NCBI RefSeq assembly: GCF_001458695.1
Contig: NZ_LN885086.1
Location: 2,190,001-2,222,000 of the forward strand
Direction: 5' to 3'
DNA length: 32,000 nt
Origin: Candidatus Nitrospira inopinata
GTDB lineage: Bacteria; Nitrospirota; Nitrospiria; Nitrospirales; Nitrospiraceae
The notes beneath the pieces were generated by a model. The model searched no databases and had not been told where the DNA came from. It worked only from the letters and a program-made list of their open reading frames with translations. A program made the translations under genes and the position numbers. Each line of letters starts with the position of its first letter. Position 1 is the stretch's first letter. Shown here in pieces: positions 23,931 to 30,904 of the stretch.

Positions 23931-23934
23931 AGGG

Positions 23935-23979
23935 TGCAACTCGGAGAGATGCGACTCGGAGAAGTGCGACTCGGCGGGG
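23935..23979. repeat. three tandem 15-bp direct repeats (TGCRACTCGG core)
   Basis: TGCAACTCGGAGAGA (23935-23949), TGCGACTCGGAGAAG (23950-23964), TGCGACTCGGCGGGG (23965-23979). The array starts 5 nt after the GT9 stop and lies in the 159-nt gap before the next gene. Confidence 0.8.
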
Positions 23980-24089
23980 ATGACACGGTGGGAACGGCGC
24001 GAATGGTTGTCGGTAGGTTGTCTGAAGTCGACGATCCGCCACGCCGGAAGACGGGAGAGTCGTCAAAAGAGGTGGAAAGGAGAGCGACC

Positions 24090-24614
24090 ATGCGCGTGAA
24101 GCTCGATCAAGAGGAGTGGGAGTCTTTGGAACAGGCGACATTGGGCGAGGTATTGGCCGAAGTCAGCGACCGTGCCCACGCGCGATCGCGTCTGGTGACC
24201 GCGTTGCGGCTGGATCATCGGGAGATCACGGATCGGGACATCGACGCATCGTTGATGATGGAGCCGGCTTCCCGATACGGACGGCTTATCGCCGTGACCC
24301 AATCGGTTGAGGACATTGAACATGATGCCTGGATCGCCGCCGGACGCTACGCAAAACTGCTTCATGCGGAGGGACTGTCTCTGTTGGAAGCCTGGCGGGC
24401 CGGAACCTCTCGCGATCTAGCCATGAACGAATGGCTCGGCCAATTGGCCGATTATTTGGAATTTACCGAAGGACGCGATCGGCAATGTCCGGCTGATCGT
24501 CGGACCTCTCTCAGCTTCTGGGTTGAGGAGCTGTTGACGGCCAGAGATGGTGGTGACCTGATCCTGACGGCCGATCTCCTGGAATACGAAATCCTTCCGC
24601 GGTTGGCGGCATAG
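24090..24614 (+). CDS. hypothetical protein (174 aa) immediately upstream of fliC
   Basis: ATG 24090 lies behind AAGGAGAG; the track start 23934 would read through the tandem repeats. The product is acidic, looks soluble ('MRVKLDQEEWESLEQATLGEVLAEV...') and has no motif I recognise. Confidence 0.55.
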   Translation: MRVKLDQEEWESLEQATLGEVLAEVSDRAHARSRLVTALRLDHREITDRDIDASLMMEPASRYGRLIAVTQSVEDIEHDAWIAAGRYAKLLHAEGLSLLEAWRAGTSRDLAMNEWLGQLADYLEFTEGRDRQCPADRRTSLSFWVEELLTARDGGDLILTADLLEYEILPRLAA

Positions 24615-24821: not shown

Positions 24822-25649
24822 ATGGCTCTGATCGTCAACAACAATCCCGCGTCAATCGCGGCTCAGCGAAACCTGACGGTGAGTACCAATGCGTTACAGC
24901 GATCCGTCGAACGGCTATCGTCCGGTCTTCGGATCACCCGCGCGGCGGACGACGCCGCCGGTCTTGGATTGTCCGAGTCCTTGCGGGCGCAGATTCGCAG
25001 TATCAACCAGGCGACCCGTAACGCCTCGGACGGGATCAGTTTGACGCAAATCGCCGACGGCGCCGCTTCGGTCGTCGGCTCTCTGTTGGCGAGAATGCGG
25101 GAGTTGGCATCCCAGGCATCCAGCGGCACCGTCGGCTCGACGGAGCGGTCTTACATCGATCAAGAGTTCATTGCCCTGCGGTCTGAAATCGACCGGATCG
25201 CGCAAACCACCGAATTCAACGGTCAGGCCTTGACCAGCGGCTCCACCATCAGCTTCTCGATCGCGATCGGGTTTCGGAGCGGTACGGGCAACACCTTGTC
25301 GTTGGACTTGAACGACATCACGACAACGTCCTTAGGGCTCAGCAGTGTCAATGTGTCGACGTCCGGCAACGCCACGAGCGCCCTGGCAAACATTGACAAT
25401 GCCATCAGCGCGGTTGCGACCGCCCGAGCCGAGTACGGGTCCCTGCAAAACCGGCTGGAGGCCACGATTACAAACCTCCAAGTGACGAGCGAAAACCTGA
25501 CGGCTGCCGAATCCCGTATCCGCGATGCGGACATCGCCTACGAGACGTCGGTGTTTACCAAGAACCAGATTCTGGTTCAGACCGGCATCTCGGTTCTGGC
25601 GCAGGCAAACACGCTGCCGCAACAGGCTTTGGCCTTGTTGCAGCGGTAG
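24822..25649 (+). CDS. fliC: flagellin (short, 275 aa)
   Basis: Strong SD AAGGAGGAG. The N-terminal D0/D1 region 'MALIVNNNPASIAAQRNL...RLSSGLRITRAADDAAGL...' and the C-terminal 'GSLQNRLEATITNL...ILVQTGISVLAQANTLPQQALALLQR' are canonical flagellin blocks. Confidence 0.95.
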   Translation: MALIVNNNPASIAAQRNLTVSTNALQRSVERLSSGLRITRAADDAAGLGLSESLRAQIRSINQATRNASDGISLTQIADGAASVVGSLLARMRELASQASSGTVGSTERSYIDQEFIALRSEIDRIAQTTEFNGQALTSGSTISFSIAIGFRSGTGNTLSLDLNDITTTSLGLSSVNVSTSGNATSALANIDNAISAVATARAEYGSLQNRLEATITNLQVTSENLTAAESRIRDADIAYETSVFTKNQILVQTGISVLAQANTLPQQALALLQR

Positions 25650-25659
25650 GTGACAGAAG

Positions 25660-25698
25660 GGGCGGCCGCTCGTCGCGATAAACGCCGAGCGGCCGCCC
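25660..25698 (+). terminator. strong GC hairpin downstream of fliC (terminator/attenuator candidate)
   Basis: Perfect 13-bp inverted repeat GGGCGGCCGCTCG (25660-25672) / CGAGCGGCCGCCC (25686-25698) around a 13-nt loop, 11 nt after the fliC stop. There is no clear U-tract afterwards, so classical intrinsic termination is uncertain. Confidence 0.6.
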
Positions 25699-25726
25699 GT
25701 CGGCTGGATTTGGCAATGAGGTTGCC

Positions 25727-26122
25727 ATGATTACACAAGCTGTCGGCAAGGCGGATCTTTTGGCTCTGCTCCACAGAGAACCGCGTTCGGATCGCGCTTT
25801 GATGAAAGAGGCGGATTCGAGTCGAAAAACGACGCTTCCATCCCGTACCGAGACCGAGAATTTCTTTCATCGCATCGACGGCTGGCGTGGAGAGCTGAGC
25901 GTAGCGGTGCGGACCGTTGAGGACATGCTGAAATCGGCGGGTCTTCAGGTCAAGCTTCTTGTGGATGAGAAAACCGATCAGGTTGTGGTGAAGGTGATCA
26001 AAGAATCGGGCGAGGTGATTCGTCAATTCCCTCCCGAAGAGATTTTAGAGTTGGCGAGATATTTGTCCGAAGAGCGGATGGATCAGCCGGACAAAGGCGT
26101 CTTGCTGGAGGAGCGGGCCTGA
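25727..26122 (+). CDS. flaG: flagellar protein FlaG
   Basis: GAGG lies 5 nt upstream of the ATG. The C-terminal 'LLVDEKTDQVVVKVIKESGEVIRQFPPEEILELARYL' is the FlaG family signature. 131 aa. Positioned between fliC and fliD. Confidence 0.8.
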   Translation: MITQAVGKADLLALLHREPRSDRALMKEADSSRKTTLPSRTETENFFHRIDGWRGELSVAVRTVEDMLKSAGLQVKLLVDEKTDQVVVKVIKESGEVIRQFPPEEILELARYLSEERMDQPDKGVLLEERA

Positions 26123-26169
26123 GAAACCGGGCGTGCTATTCTTCTCGCGGCTTGTGAGGAAGGAGACGT

Positions 26170-27561
26170 ATGGCGACAATCAGTTTCGGCGGGCTCGGCA
26201 ACGGGGTCGATTTCGGCCCGGTCATCGACCAGTTGCTGAAGGTCGCCCGTTTGCCGATCGACCGGTTGGAAGAGAAGAAAGCCGCACTCAATTCAAAGAA
26301 CACCGACTACGCGACGTTGAGCACCAAGCTGGCCTCATTGCAAAGTGCGGCCGAGAAATTGAGACGAGCCGTCTCCTTCGACCAGTCATCCGCCGGCGTG
26401 TCCAATGAGACGGTTCTGACCGCCGCCGCGTCCTCTTCGGCGACGCAGGGCACCTATCAAATTCAGGTCACTAGGCTCGCGCAGTCTCATCAGGTCGTCA
26501 GCAAGGCGGCCAAGGCCGTCGCGACTATGACGACCGATATCGTGTCCGGCAGTTCCGCGACCTTTACATTCCGTGTAGGGTCAGGATCAAACCAAACCGT
26601 CACCCTCGGCGCCACGGCCACACTCGAAGACCTGAGGGATCAGATCAATGATCTGGGGGCCGGTGTTATCGCTTCCATCATCAATACAGGTTCGGATACG
26701 ACCCCGGCTTATCGGTTGATCCTCACATCCACCAGTACCGGCGCCGACAACGCGATCACGATCGTGACCGATCAGACCGATCTTGATTTGACCAATGGCA
26801 GCGGAACGGGAGGCACCGATACGTTGCAAGCGGCGCAAGACGCGGAAGTGGTTGTGGGATCGTTGTCGACCGTCACGCTCACGAGAAGCGGCAATGTGAT
26901 CACCGACGCAATTCCTGGCGTCACGCTCACGCTGAAAGAAACGGGAACCGCGCAAGTGAGCGTGGTTCGGGACGTCGGCGCCGTGAAAAACAACGTCAAA
27001 GCGCTGGCGACCGCCTATAACGACGTCGTCAAGTTTATCAATGAGCGAACCACATACGACGTGGTGACGAAAAAAGGGGGCAACTTCTTCAATGAACCGG
27101 CGGTACGGACCGTCCTGTCCCAGGTGCGAGGGGCCCTGTCCGCGACGGTACCGGGCGCGACCACCTACACCACGGTGGGCGAGATCGGCTTTAAGACGGA
27201 GCGCGACGGCACCATCACAGTTGACGAAGCCAAGCTTGGCTCGGCGCTCGCCGAGAACTACGCGGCGGTCAAGGCCCTGTTTATCAATCAAAGCGGGGTG
27301 ACGGGTGTCGCCCAGCTCATGGTTGACGCGGTGGACCGTCTCGACGACATCGAATTCGGATCGGTCACGCTCCGCAAACAGGGGCTGACGAATTCCATCA
27401 GCGACCTCGCCGAGGAGATCGCCAAAAGGGAAGATGCGCTGGCGCTGTACGAGGAACGGCTCAAACGGCAGTATGCGGCGTTGGACAGCCTCTTGCGGCA
27501 ATTGAGCAGCCAAGCGTCCTTTTTGACGGCGCGGGATAACGCGGCCAAGCAAATCCTCTAA
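26170..27561 (+). CDS. fliD: flagellar filament cap protein FliD (HAP2)
   Basis: SD GGAAGGAG. The N-terminus 'ISFGGLGNGVDFGPVIDQLLKVARLPIDRLEEKK' and the C-terminal 'YEERLKRQYAALDSLLRQLSSQASFL' are typical FliD termini. Confidence 0.9.
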   Translation: MATISFGGLGNGVDFGPVIDQLLKVARLPIDRLEEKKAALNSKNTDYATLSTKLASLQSAAEKLRRAVSFDQSSAGVSNETVLTAAASSSATQGTYQIQVTRLAQSHQVVSKAAKAVATMTTDIVSGSSATFTFRVGSGSNQTVTLGATATLEDLRDQINDLGAGVIASIINTGSDTTPAYRLILTSTSTGADNAITIVTDQTDLDLTNGSGTGGTDTLQAAQDAEVVVGSLSTVTLTRSGNVITDAIPGVTLTLKETGTAQVSVVRDVGAVKNNVKALATAYNDVVKFINERTTYDVVTKKGGNFFNEPAVRTVLSQVRGALSATVPGATTYTTVGEIGFKTERDGTITVDEAKLGSALAENYAAVKALFINQSGVTGVAQLMVDAVDRLDDIEFGSVTLRKQGLTNSISDLAEEIAKREDALALYEERLKRQYAALDSLLRQLSSQASFLTARDNAAKQIL

Positions 27562-27576
27562 CGTGGAGATCGAGTC

Positions 27577-27972
27577 ATGATCGCGCAATGTGCGAATCGG
27601 TACCGCCAGACGCAGGTGATGACGTCGTCGCGCGTGCAGATCGTGGTCTTGCTGTACGACGCGGCCATTCAATCGATCGAATTGGCCCGCCAAGCGATCG
27701 AAACAGGCAATATAGCCGACAAGGGACGGTTTCTGGGGCGCGCCATCTCGATCGTCGGTGAGCTCGATTGCGCGCTCGATTACGAGCGGGGCGGGGAGAT
27801 CGCGAGTCTGCTGCATCGGCTCTACGAGTACGTGTTGTCCGAACTGATCGAAGCGAATGTCCGGAACGAGGGGCGCAGGCTGGAAGGGGCGCTTCGTTGT
27901 CTGAACGTTCTCCGCGAGGGATGGAGAGGGGCGGCGGTCCAGGAGCATGCCCCGCTCGCACTGACGAGGTAA
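27577..27972 (+). CDS. fliS: flagellin-specific export chaperone FliS
   Basis: SD GGAGA. 'YRQTQVMTSSRVQIVVLLYDAAIQSIELAR...GELDCALDYERGGEIASLLHRLYEYVLSELIEAN' matches the FliS family throughout. 131 aa. Confidence 0.92.
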   Translation: MIAQCANRYRQTQVMTSSRVQIVVLLYDAAIQSIELARQAIETGNIADKGRFLGRAISIVGELDCALDYERGGEIASLLHRLYEYVLSELIEANVRNEGRRLEGALRCLNVLREGWRGAAVQEHAPLALTR

Positions 27973-27977
27973 TCGTC

Positions 27978-28289
27978 ATGCAAGAGTGGACGACGCTCGA
28001 ACGCCTGACGGAGGCTGCCTATACGGCCGCTCTGAAAGGAGAGTGGAATGTAGTGGAAGCCTGTTATCGTGAGCGGGAAGCGGTGTTGCAAGAAGCCGAA
28101 ATATCCGACGCTGTGCGTGAGAGGCTTCTGGCGCTCGACCAAGAGGTGGCGGAGCGGGCCGGAACAGCCAAGGCCGGCGTCGCGGGCTTGCTGCAGGATG
28201 TGGGTTCGCGGCGCAAGCGCTTGGAGCATCTGAGACAACGGATGGGCGGATCGCCAGAACCTTCGCCTCTCATCGACAGACAAGGGTGA
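27978..28289 (+). CDS. FliT-like flagellar chaperone (putative)
   Basis: ATG 27978 lies behind GAGG, 5 nt after the fliS stop; the track start 27768 overlaps fliS. 103 aa and helical. 'ALKGEWNVVEACYREREAVLQ' resembles the 'AQRGEWDLLLQQEVSYLQ' block of enterobacterial FliT. The position after fliS matches fliDST order. Similarity is weak and based on recollection only. Confidence 0.45.
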   Translation: MQEWTTLERLTEAAYTAALKGEWNVVEACYREREAVLQEAEISDAVRERLLALDQEVAERAGTAKAGVAGLLQDVGSRRKRLEHLRQRMGGSPEPSPLIDRQG

Positions 28290-29077
28290 TTATGCGGTTG
28301 CGAACAGAAAGAGCGGCCCCTCTCTCCCTCGTTCGGTCCGGGAACGGCGCCCCACGGGAAATAGTCGCACGGGAAATGGTCGAAGGAGCGGGACAAGCCG
28401 TCATAGGTCGGGCTGGCGACGAATCGGCTGCGATCGGGGAGATCGGGTTTCGAGAGCGGCGAAGCGCAAAAATCATTGCCGGCGGAACAGCGCTCGCCTT
28501 GGTTGAGGCCGGTCTTGCTCCATCAAACTGTGCCATGGAAACGAAGGATCCGCTTACCGGTCTGCTGGATCGACGGACCTTCGAGACGCTCCTCCATCGG
28601 AGGCTCAAAATGTGGCTGCGACATGGGGTTCCATCCTGTTTGCTGGTGCTGGATCTCGACTACTTCAAGATTGTGAATGAACAGCTTGGCTGGAATGCTG
28701 GAGATGAGTTGCTCCGCCAGGTGGCTGATCTTATCAAAAAGAACGTTCGCGAAGCCGATTCCGTTTCGAGGTACGGAGGCGGGTCGTTCGCCGTCTTGTT
28801 GCCGGAGGCCGATCTTCCGCATGGTGTGGGAACGGCGGAACGTTTGCGGGACGAGATGGAACGGCACGCCTTTGTGTTGGGGCAAGGACAGGCGCGCATG
28901 ACAGCCAGCATCGGCGTGACGTCGCTGGGGCGCGCCGCGATCGAGTCGATCGGGCGGTGGATGGCGGCGGCCGACGCCGCGCTGGATCAGGCGAAGTCCC
29001 GCGGACGCAATCGCGTCGTCATCTCCGAATCGTCTCCTTTCGTGCCGGCGCAAGCCGCCCTTTGTCTGGCGGCTTGA
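28286..29077 (+). CDS. degenerate GGDEF-domain protein (GGGSF A-site, intact RxxD I-site); probable c-di-GMP-binding effector rather than cyclase
   Basis: GTG 28286 overlaps the FliT-like stop (GTGA); ATG 28292 is the alternative start. GGDEF-fold blocks are 'DPLTGLLDRRTF', 'LVLDLDYFKIVNEQLGWNAGDELL' and 'MTASIGV'. The A-site reads 'RYGGGSFAVLL' (GGGSF codons 28775-28789). 'READ' (28748-28759) sits at the canonical I-site offset. Confidence 0.85.
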   Translation: MIMRLRTERAAPLSLVRSGNGAPREIVAREMVEGAGQAVIGRAGDESAAIGEIGFRERRSAKIIAGGTALALVEAGLAPSNCAMETKDPLTGLLDRRTFETLLHRRLKMWLRHGVPSCLLVLDLDYFKIVNEQLGWNAGDELLRQVADLIKKNVREADSVSRYGGGSFAVLLPEADLPHGVGTAERLRDEMERHAFVLGQGQARMTASIGVTSLGRAAIESIGRWMAAADAALDQAKSRGRNRVVISESSPFVPAQAALCLAA

Positions 29078-29085
29078 GGAAAAAG

Positions 29086-29709
29086 ATGATGGAAAGGGCG
29101 GGAGCAACCGCGGTCGATCGACAGGTCGTGCGAATGCCGGCGTCGGAAGACCGGCGTGAGTGGATTCGTATCGAAGACAAGCTGTTACTCGAATACCGAT
29201 TGGAGGGCGGGCACGATAAAACGCCTGCCTCCGGCCGCGAAACGGTGACCGACGAAATGATCGCGGCCGCGGTCGAGAAACCGACGACTGAACTTCTGGC
29301 CAGGTCCGGTGACGTGTTGGCGCAGGCGGCGTTGGTCCCGTGGATCATGAAAGTGGACTGGCTGCTGGAAGTCATACTGAAAACGCTGGCGAAATCGTCT
29401 CCCGGTTGCATGGAGTTGGCGACAGTGACGGATGTCAACATCAGCGGGGGGGGAATCGGATTTGTCGCGTCGCAACGGTTTAACGCAGGCGATCGATTGG
29501 CGCTGAGGGTCATTTTGCCGCCGTTCACGCCGATTCAAGTGGCGGCCAAGGTGATCCGGTCGTCGCCGGATCCGCAAGGGCGGGGATTCGTCCTTGCCGC
29601 CGAGTTCATCGATCTTGGCGCGGATGAGCAGGACTACCTGATCCGTTACGTTCTTCAGACGCAGGCGGAGCGGCTTCGGACGAGGAGAAAAGACGAACAA
29701 GCGTCGTGA
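29086..29709 (+). CDS. PilZ-domain protein with long insertion between the two c-di-GMP-binding motifs
   Basis: ATG 29086 lies 5 nt after GAGGA; the track start 28957 overlaps the GGDEF gene. RxxxR 'RREWIR' is at 29152-29169. [D/N]xSxxG 'NISGGG' is at 29437-29454, 89 residues after the RxxxR motif versus ~20-30 in canonical PilZ. The C-terminal beta-barrel-like part is 'GDRLALRVILPP..VAAKVIRS..GFVLAAEFIDL'. Confidence 0.7.
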   Translation: MMERAGATAVDRQVVRMPASEDRREWIRIEDKLLLEYRLEGGHDKTPASGRETVTDEMIAAAVEKPTTELLARSGDVLAQAALVPWIMKVDWLLEVILKTLAKSSPGCMELATVTDVNISGGGIGFVASQRFNAGDRLALRVILPPFTPIQVAAKVIRSSPDPQGRGFVLAAEFIDLGADEQDYLIRYVLQTQAERLRTRRKDEQAS

Positions 29710-29828
29710 GAGCGATGTCGTTTTTCCTATTCTCTGGCCGTGAGGACGCCGGCGACGCAAGGCCCGCGCTTGCGAGAACACGGGACGCCGAATCCAAAGA
29801 CCTTTGACTGAACGGGAGTGGTGAAGCG

Positions 29829-30857
29829 ATGAGCACGGCCGAACTCGTCACCGAAGTGGATATCAAGGATATCATCGGCAGCATCGAGCGTCAGATAGAG
29901 GACCACCGCCTCGTGAACGCCAGGATCACGAGCGAGATCACCATCCTGTCCTTGAACGCTTCGATCGAGGCGGCGCGGGCCGGCGACGCCGGCCGGGGTT
30001 TCGCCGTGGTCGCCACCGAAGTCAAGAACCTGGCGGCACAGGCCGCGGAAGCGTCGAAAGAGCTCGGGAAAATCCGGGCGGAGACGAGCGAGTTGGACCG
30101 GCGATTCACGGAAAAGGAATGCGACCGTCTTTCGGAAAAGGCGCAAACTCTTGTGCAGTTGATCGTAAGGAATTTGTATGAACGGACCGCGGACGTTCGC
30201 TGGTGGGCGACGGATGAGGCGCTGGTGCAGGCGTTGGAAACGGGAACCCAAACCGCCCTCGCCCGAGCGGGACAGCGGATGGCCCTGATCAACCGATTTT
30301 ACAGCGTGTATCTCAACCTCGTGCTCGTCGGCGCCGACGGCAAGATCGTGGCCTGTTCCCAGCCGGATAAATATCCCAAACTGATCGGAGGCAACGCGTC
30401 CGGGCTGTCCTGGTTCCGGAAGGCGATGGCGACGACGAGCGGCGACCAGTACGCCGTGGACGATATTTGTAACGACCCGCTGCATCAGAACAAAATGGTC
30501 GCCGTGTACGCAGCGGCCGTCCGCAAGGAGGGACGAGTGGACGGGAAAGTCATCGGAGCGCTCGGGGTCGTCTTCGACTGGGAGAGTCAGTCGAAGACCA
30601 TCGTTCGAAAAGAGGCGTCCTTTTCCGAATCTTCGTGGAAGCGGACACGGGTGATGCTGCTTGACAAAGACATGCGCGTGATCGCCGCCTCGGATGATCA
30701 GGGACTGCTCCAACCGTTCGCGCTCGACCATCAGGGGAAAGAGCGAGGGTACTACGTCAATGACGATCATGAAGTGACGGCGTACGCCAAAACGATCGGA
30801 TACCAAGAATACGACGGGCTCGGCTGGTACGGGGTCATCGTCAGGAAGCTGCAGTAA
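29829..30857 (+). CDS. soluble MCP-like protein: short methyl-accepting signalling hairpin tip fused to a C-terminal Cache/PAS-like sensor domain
   Basis: '[40 protein letters not shown]' is the highly conserved MCP hairpin-tip motif, located at aa ~38-77. Only ~115 aa of coiled coil are present in total. The remaining ~225 aa ('[14 protein letters not shown] ... [14 protein letters not shown] ... [12 protein letters not shown] ... GWYGVIV') look like a Cache/PAS-type fold. I saw no hydrophobic TM segment. Confidence 0.7.
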
Positions 30858-30904
30858 ATGAACAGGAACAAACGGGTCTCAAGAAACGGTCGGCGGGCGT
30901 ACGC

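Follow-up and report, generated by a model that had tools for sequence, protein, structure and literature searches.

A tetramer-class PilZ protein and a degenerate GGDEF protein at the end of the late flagellar operon of Candidatus Nitrospira inopinata

Within a 32,000-nucleotide stretch of the genome of Candidatus Nitrospira inopinata (contig NZ_LN885086.1, positions 2,190,001 to 2,222,000; here referred to as the window), a run of flagellar genes ends with a gene for a GGDEF protein with a degenerate active site, here referred to as the GGGSF protein, and a gene for a PilZ protein. These two proteins and their possible part in signaling by cyclic di-GMP (c-di-GMP) are the subject of this analysis. 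Open reading frame (ORF) calls and Pfam matches delineate a co-directional gene string on the forward strand at bases 24822-29709, which makes up the end of the late flagellar operon of Nitrospira and has the order fliC-flaG-fliD-fliS-fliT-like-ggdef-tpilZ, the ggdef gene being the degenerate one. It comprises the genes for flagellin (24822-25649), FlaG (25727-26122), FliD (26170-27561), the flagellin export chaperone FliS (27577-27972), a FliT-like protein of 103 amino acids (27978-28289), the GGGSF protein (28292-29077; 261 amino acids from the ATG, or 28286-29077 for the ORF from an alternative GTG), and the PilZ protein (29086-29709). The operon is common to 7 loci taken from assemblies and to 30 species genomes of the Nitrospiraceae. 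When the 30 species loci were surveyed with a 1.5-kb flank around the PilZ gene, this gene was found just 3' of fliD-fliS-fliT-like in all of them wherever the flank reaches that far. In close relatives, cheY-cheZ-motA-motB follow downstream within 2 to 3 kb.

The PilZ protein contains an RxxxR motif at bases 29155-29169 (R24-EWI-R28, with R23 before it) and a [D/N]hSxxG motif at bases 29437-29454 (NISGGG, N118 to G123), both located by alignment of homologues. A note made by a model from the sequence alone, referred to here as the original prediction, had described these motifs as lying 89 residues apart with a helical-looking insertion and had suggested structure prediction as a check; both the spacing and the helices are borne out. 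An AlphaFold2 model built on 52 Nitrospira homologues (mean predicted local distance difference test [pLDDT] score of 75, and 84 to 93 in the barrel) has strands at residues 29-39, 113-119, 123-128, 137-144, 148-161, and 168-175, two long helices at residues 56-79 and 84-109 between β1 and β2, and a long basic C-terminal helix at residues 179-206. The 52 homologues share R24, E25, W26, R28, S120, G122, and G123 without exception, and at least 90% of them have N118. The two-helix insert, defined from the model and the alignment as residues 40-112 (bases 29203-29421), includes K65, P66, P85, W86, K89, and D91, which are likewise invariant and are among the best-conserved residues of the protein. 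The Pfam PilZ profile matches with an E value of 2.1e-11, aligning only amino acids 113-191 to profile positions 25-102.

[quoted passage not shown] A second survey of PilZ proteins states that, in the tPilZ group of PA2989, RxxxR and the second motif are more than 90 residues apart. In a Foldseek search of the PDB, the top match of the model was the tetrameric PilZ protein XCC6012 (3PH1/3RQA; E values of 6e-7 to 7e-6 over 176 to 183 aligned columns), and canonical PilZ domains matched the barrel only. Like XCC6012 and PA2989, the Nitrospira protein is a stand-alone protein of about 200 amino acids with two long helices between β1 and β2 and, in the model, a six-stranded barrel, and it shares with the class the basic C-terminal helix and the occurrence of one copy per genome. 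A K-h-D motif and a hydrophobic heptad (I87/V90/L94/I97/L101) are present in α3. The interlocking-motif site reads I87-M88-K89-V90-D91, in which K89 and D91 are invariant and V90 nearly so. The protein departs from the class in that the first position of this site is hydrophobic and not [DENH] and in that it is missed by the Pfam model of the family, PF16823. The authors of the FlgX study argued that the interlocking motif should not serve as a tPilZ criterion, and they reported the family to be too divergent for homology searches. Judged by its predicted structure, the "split" PilZ that the original prediction took for an atypical receptor is thus a tPilZ, with XCC6012 as its best fold match. 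A tetramer would be expected from the modeled fold. XCC6012 itself lacks the c-di-GMP motifs, unlike the Nitrospira protein, whose motifs are intact and about 90 residues apart, as they are in PA2989 of Pseudomonas aeruginosa. As this motif-bearing tPilZ binds c-di-GMP with a Kd of 188 nM, the Nitrospira tPilZ may, by analogy, bind it too.

The tPilZ gene follows the flagellar genes across the family. Among 121 Nitrospiraceae species genomes, tPilZ was detected in 65, always as a single copy (65/65), and FliS in 61; 60 genomes have both, 55 have neither, and 1 has FliS only. The 5 genomes with tPilZ only all have their match near a contig end of a fragmented assembly. In the genome analyzed here, which has 19 PilZ domains, only this protein matches from profile position 24 onward. 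The c-di-GMP motifs are conserved whether or not a cyclase gene lies next to the tPilZ gene. Within the flagellar genes of the Nitrospiraceae, the tPilZ gene is a fixed member with one copy per genome. Such a flagellar-operon context with an adjacent cyclase gene is not described for the tPilZ family in the literature examined, and a literature search on c-di-GMP, PilZ proteins, and flagella in Nitrospira found no paper on this locus.

With regard to the target of the tPilZ, the only characterized flagellar member of the class is FlgX of Campylobacter jejuni, which forms a tetramer under the MotA pentamer, binds MotA, and stabilizes the stator ring, and for which Arg residues of the C-terminal helix are essential. 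The Nitrospira protein resembles FlgX in its tPilZ fold, its place in a flagellar gene set, and an Arg-rich C-terminal helix (RLRTRRK); in contrast, both c-di-GMP motifs are missing from FlgX, which does not bind the nucleotide, and the gene neighborhoods differ, being ubiA-flgX-flgW in Campylobacter and fliS-fliT-(ggdef)-tpilZ in Nitrospira. The likeness is one of fold and gene set. When the tPilZ alignment was used as a profile against the PDB, it found MotI (YpfA) only (5VX6, E value of 1.5e-7, over the barrel) and not XCC6012, so that the link to the latter comes from the fold search only. Like YcgR and MotI, the tPilZ is a motif-bearing PilZ protein encoded with late flagellar genes, but it has the two-helix insert instead of a PilZN-type N-terminal domain. 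Given that FlgX binds MotA and that, among solved structures, the stator clutch MotI comes closest to the barrel in sequence, we propose that the tPilZ, a putative c-di-GMP receptor, would have the motor as its target, the MotA stator being the most probable site of action, as FlgX, YcgR, and MotI suggest by analogy. The original prediction had instead placed c-di-GMP control not at the motor but at the export, capping, or glycosylation of flagellin, with both proteins acting as receptors on FliS, the FliT-like protein, FliD, or the glycosylation enzymes. In favor of such a scheme, the genes come directly after fliD-fliS-fliT-like at all loci with a visible flank, the GGGSF gene is tightly coupled to the fliT-like gene (see below), and a large flagellin-glycosylation island lies upstream within the window. 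Gene order is its sole support, though, and cheYZ-motAB are equally close on the downstream side; the PilZ-type flagellar effectors YcgR, MotI, and FlgZ, as well as the tPilZ FlgX, act on the stator or rotor, and the linkage of tPilZ to fliS persists in genomes that lack this GGDEF gene. We consider control at the level of export quite unlikely.

The GGGSF protein is recognized by the Pfam GGDEF model (E value of 1.8e-35, amino acids 87-243) and by TIGR00254 (E value of 1.4e-42), and AlphaFold2 predicts its domain with pLDDT values of 96 to 98 over residues ~82-245. The modeled domain superposes on 3IGN, a cyclase domain with c-di-GMP bound at the inhibitory (I) site, at 1.1 Å and with a template modeling (TM) score of 0.95. 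Its A-site reads GGGSF (bases 28775-28789), aligned with GGEEF of 3IGN, and five residues before it lies the RxxD motif READ (bases 28748-28759), aligned with RQSD; the stretch from READ to GGGSF aligns gap-free, column for column, with RQSDSAGRYGGEEF of 3IGN. The alignment of orthologues also places GWNAGD (bases 28688-28705) at the usual GHxxGD block, whose His position is occupied by W, H, Y, or R inside the GGGSF clade and by H in every other clade. The original prediction had read these changes as arguing against cyclase activity, and the sequence and the 3IGN alignment agree: because both acidic residues of the A-site are gone, the protein, as far as its sequence tells, cannot be a diguanylate cyclase. 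The acidic pair of GG[D/E]EF is absent, and so is the N-terminal sensor or dimerization module. That a weak cyclase activity persists seems to us hardly credible: the rest of this active-site half is intact, and some noncanonical A-sites such as AGDEF are reported to be active (PMC3974145), but the equivalents of Glu370 and Glu371 are G and S, those of K332 and His340 drift inside the clade, and no dimerization or sensor module is left.

While the catalytic residues have changed, the ligand-contacting ones have largely been kept. In what follows we use PleD residue numbers and roles, the columns having been matched against 3IGN. The primary I-site consists of R153-E-A-D156 and R184 of AERLR (numbered from ATG 28292), without indels relative to 3IGN, so that the RxxD at a PleD-type offset noted in the original prediction stands and is joined by a third Arg. 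All degenerate orthologues keep the equivalents of the GTP contacts D327, N335, D344, R366, K442, and R446, whereas those of K332, H340, E370, and E371 are altered; the equivalents of the primary I-site residues R359, D362, and R390 are kept in all degenerate orthologues except one. This exception is the GGGAF orthologue L006/P0009, in which both I-site arginines are gone, replaced by Q and H; overall, the I-site R and D are kept at 18 of 19 loci. Since the I-site and the GTP-contacting residues are kept, a noncatalytic nucleotide-binding role of the dead GGDEF domains is likely, and c-di-GMP at the I-site is the most probable ligand of the GGGSF protein. Because the GTP contacts are more strictly conserved and the I-site is lost in one orthologue, the protein may alternatively bind GTP or serve a purely protein-binding role. 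One form of the former alternative would be that the domain acts via its half active site, either as a GTP sensor, for which the GEDEF domain of Caulobacter PdeA is a precedent, or as a nonproductive heterodimer partner that dampens the two other GGDEF proteins of the genome. The strictness with which the GTP contacts are kept in every degenerate orthologue and the presence of only two other GGDEF proteins would fit this. However, the dimerizing stalk helix before DxLT is broken by Pro and Gly and predicted to be disordered, no fused output domain is available for a GTP signal to regulate, and the metal-binding Glu known from PleD is gone, which weakens Mg-GTP binding. We therefore regard action via the half active site as very unlikely.

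In having a GGDEF fold, a noncatalytic A-site, and an RxxD motif five residues upstream, the GGGSF protein is similar to PssE of Listeria, SgmT of Myxococcus, PelD, PopA, and CdgA; PssE binds c-di-GMP at 0.79 µM, and SgmT binds it through its degenerate GGDEF domain. Like pssE, the GGGSF gene is an accessory at the end of the operon that it would serve. In contrast to these I-site receptors, the GGGSF protein has no fused output or membrane domain and is a near-bare GGDEF domain with a disordered tail, its GTP contacts are intact, it can be traced to immediate ancestors at this very locus that are cyclases of the active type, and one orthologue of its clade lacks the I-site arginines. Both the GGGSF protein and the tPilZ thus belong to known kinds of proteins.

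The original prediction missed where the GGGSF gene comes from. Its counterpart in Nitrospira moscoviensis, at the same position, encodes a protein of 502 amino acids with a REC(weak)-GAF-GGDEF architecture that carries GGEEF and RDVD. Of the 30 species loci, 7 encode GGEEF proteins of this kind, of about 450 to 500 amino acids, 4, from the genus of the window, encode RGNTF or KGNTF proteins of about 375 to 395 amino acids, and 18 lack a GGDEF gene in the interval from fliT to tPilZ; the one locus with GGGSF is that of the window. Metagenome-assembled close relatives supply intermediates, namely, GGEAF proteins of 372 amino acids with a partial GAF domain and GGGSF or GGGAF proteins of 254 to 263 amino acids, which gives a graded series from GGEEF (~500 amino acids) through GGEAF (372 amino acids) to GGGSF (~260 amino acids). 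In a maximum-likelihood tree of the domain, the GGGSF/GGGAF clade (support of 100/100) is nested inside a GGEAF grade (100/100), the RGNTF proteins form a clade of their own (100/100), and both dead groups sit on long stems of 0.45 to 0.5 substitutions per site. From this tree, the A-site was lost at least once and probably twice, and truncation was stepwise. The second dead lineage, found at four loci of the genus of the window (L012, L019, L021, and L023), has RYRGNTF or RCKGNTF in place of RYGGEEF and keeps a GAF domain and an RDSD I-site. By its sequence, the GGGSF gene is a decayed, truncated descendant of a full REC-GAF-GGDEF cyclase, dispensable in many Nitrospiraceae and still under purifying selection, with a ratio of nonsynonymous to synonymous substitution rates (dN/dS) for the GGDEF domain of 0.18 to 0.32 in the GGGSF clade (dS of up to ~1.1), compared with 0.13 to 0.16 in the RGNTF clade and 0.08 to 0.22 in the GGEEF enzymes.

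The first ~81 residues of the GGGSF protein (bases 28292-28534) are a disordered remnant of the lost GAF domain, as indicated by alignment, the model, and dN/dS. In alignments, these ~80 N-terminal residues correspond to the final ~40 residues of the GAF domain of the longer GGEAF and GGEEF orthologues; their pLDDT values are 38 to 54, without secondary structure, their evolution is almost neutral (dN/dS of 0.39 to 0.79), and their G+C content at the three codon positions is atypical (72/59/57 versus the usual 67/46/70). Nevertheless, all five close orthologues have kept this frame open, with two in-frame indels of 21 nucleotides each. The idea that the whole gene is a pseudogene was rejected for the domain on the basis of dN/dS and is still plausible for the N-terminal 80 residues. 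As for the start codon, the original prediction had the gene begin on the stop codon of the FliT-like gene. A GTG at 28286 does overlap the TGA at 28287-28289, and the tight coupling stands, but this GTG is present in only three of the five close orthologues, the other two having CTGA instead of GTGA. An ATG two bases after the stop (TGAnnATG) is found in all five, and in the window AAGGG lies five bases 5' of it. Since, in addition, the internal Met84 codon is ATA in two orthologues, the start is most likely ATG 28292 and not the overlapping GTG. This internal codon, ATG 28535 (METKD), was itself considered as the true start and was rejected, given the ATA in two close orthologues, the open upstream frame in all five, and the conserved ATG after fliT. 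Because the TGAnnATG coupling is conserved, coexpression of the GGGSF gene with fliS and the fliT-like gene is well supported by sequence. At the other end of the gene (bases 29033-29077), almost every member of this GGDEF family, whether active or dead, has the conserved C-terminal tail ...P(A/V)QAAxLC(L/V)AA-COOH; the hydrophobic-Ala-Ala end of this tail resembles C-terminal degrons recognized by ClpX.

These data raise the question of whether the GGGSF gene is merely a decaying relic without a signaling role, en route to the loss seen in most Nitrospiraceae, so that only the tPilZ matters. Such a course is suggested by the stepwise truncation from 502 through 372 to ~260 amino acids, by the nearly neutral, compositionally atypical N terminus, by the absence of the gene from most species loci, by the loss of the I-site arginines in one orthologue, and by dN/dS values of the GGDEF domain above those of its neighbors (0.08 to 0.15 for fliS, 0.06 to 0.16 for fliT-like, and 0.11 to 0.19 for pilZ). 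On the other hand, the domain has been constrained over a dS of up to ~1, the independently dead RGNTF clade has dN/dS values as low as those of the GGEEF enzymes, the reading frame has been kept through in-frame indels, the fold is predicted with very high confidence, and 9/9 ligand-contacting residues have stayed the same against a background of change at about half of all positions. On balance, we think it improbable that the GGGSF gene is only a relic.

The window also bears traces of recombination at these genes, bases 28535-30900 being a mosaic with respect to the loci L001, L002, and L008. Bases 28935-30900, which cover the 3' end of the GGGSF gene, the tPilZ gene, and the MCP-Cache gene that follows, are 88 to 98% identical to L001 of the GGEAF lineage and 73 to 89% identical to L002 and L008 of the GGGSF lineage, whereas bases 28535-28935 show the opposite pattern, with 64 to 67% identity to L001 and 74 to 84% to L002 and L008. 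Between the window and one other genome, identity is 96% for the tPilZ and only 56% for the GGDEF protein.

A domain inventory of the complete 3.3-Mb genome gave three GGDEF domains, of which the two others belong to canonical REC-GGDEF proteins with GGDEF and RxxD, seven HD-GYP-type domains, and the 19 PilZ domains mentioned above; no EAL domain was found in it. With two canonical cyclases, a c-di-GMP signal exists without a cyclase of the operon's own. At the other end of the window, a gene for an HD-GYP-type phosphodiesterase (bases 69-986; HD_5, E value of 1.8e-25) overlaps by 4 nucleotides a gene for a YcgR-like PilZNR-PilZ protein of 240 amino acids (bases 983-1705). Lying 27 kb upstream of the tPilZ gene, they provide a second c-di-GMP effector, of the classical flagellar-brake type, together with a degrading enzyme of its own.

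As for the remainder of the locus, the original prediction had named FliS and a FliT-like protein as neighbors of the GGDEF gene. FliS is confirmed (Pfam E value of 3.8e-35), while the match to Pfam FliT remains sub-threshold, with an E value of 0.25 for the protein of the window and 0.15 for the best of the five out of seven orthologues that match (profile positions 4-80 of 85). The precomputed annotation in close-relative loci reads "FliT (weak)," and a comparison with PDB sequences did not find a FliT match; the gene is called FliT-like only for its position after fliS and its size, both of which fit FliT. In N. moscoviensis, a gene for a 69-amino-acid DVU0524-family "FlgM-associated" protein (L005:4176-4385; E value of 5.6e-7) lies between the fliT-like and GGDEF genes; the window lacks such a gene, and its fliT-like gene is directly followed by the GGDEF gene. 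Immediately 5' of the flagellin gene is an ORF of 226 amino acids (bases 23934-24614), for which orthologous loci have a 174-amino-acid gene call and for which Pfam and NCBIfam scans gave no matches. Downstream of the tPilZ gene, bases 29829-30857 encode a soluble protein of 342 amino acids that combines a dCache-like module with, on its N-terminal side, only the hairpin-tip segment of a methyl-accepting chemotaxis protein (MCP) signaling domain (profile positions 33-95 of 172); most Nitrospiraceae have a ParA/MinD-like gene on the opposite strand at this position. A search with a sigma-28 consensus pattern gave no matches, and a scan with sigma-70 and terminator consensus patterns gave a single hit, a weak hairpin of the terminator type that has a T-run and lies where the tPilZ gene ends (bases 29701-29728, forward strand), a consensus match without evidence of function.

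Taken together, the reading that we favor, and hold to be rather more probable than all others, is that of a c-di-GMP-binding tPilZ that would act on the motor and of a dead, noncatalytic nucleotide-binding GGGSF protein as its partner. The ancestral REC-GAF-GGDEF cyclase at this position presumably fed c-di-GMP locally to the tPilZ. In the lineage of the window, the GGDEF gene has lost its sensor domains, its dimerizing stalk, and both catalytic acids, so that its product can no longer make c-di-GMP, and the signal would come from the two canonical REC-GGDEF cyclases. As the domain is confidently folded, has full sets of I-site and GTP contacts, and is under purifying selection, the GGGSF protein most likely survives as a noncatalytic nucleotide-binding accessory of the same pathway. 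Several observations weigh against this reading. The TM-scores of the PilZ model to XCC6012 are modest, at 0.44 to 0.55, and PF16823 had no match at an E value of 10 when searched against the genome, just as a hidden Markov model scan of the protein gave no tPilZ match at an E value of 1, so that membership in the class follows from fold and topology and not from such a model. The lack of a GGDEF gene at 18 of the 30 species loci makes this gene dispensable for the pathway. In L006/P0009 the domain is still constrained without the I-site arginines (dN/dS of 0.235 versus its sister), and hence the conserved role of the GGDEF domain may not depend on the I-site. Finally, both genes lie behind fliD-fliS-fliT, and a partner at the level of export is possible.

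A bolder version of this proposal, which we regard as unlikely though worth stating, is that the Nitrospira tPilZ is a c-di-GMP-switchable stator scaffold of the FlgX type, onto which the GGDEF protein docks as a private source of the nucleotide or, once dead, as an I-site buffer or adaptor. If so, a tPilZ tetramer would sit under each MotA pentamer with a hold on the stator that changes with c-di-GMP, the dead GGDEF protein would set the local c-di-GMP threshold, and evolution would repeatedly have converted a local signaling module from a "maker" to a "reader" of the signal.

In summary, a tPilZ with intact c-di-GMP motifs is encoded in the flagellar operon of essentially every flagellated Nitrospiraceae genome sampled, and two annotations can be corrected, the "GGDEF domain-containing protein" not being a cyclase and the PilZ protein being a tPilZ, as judged from sequence and modeled fold. 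There is as yet no direct application, but the control of motility is relevant to the biofilms of nitrifiers in water treatment. The study on FlgX raised the question of whether a link between tPilZ proteins and flagellar motors exists outside the Campylobacterota and noted that the function of motif-bearing members is unknown. Since the cyclase gene adjacent to the Nitrospiraceae tPilZ gene is of the active type, dead in two ways, or absent, these genomes form a natural comparative series in which to ask whether a stator-associated tPilZ can be regulated by c-di-GMP and what becomes of a dedicated cyclase after the synthesis of its signal has stopped.

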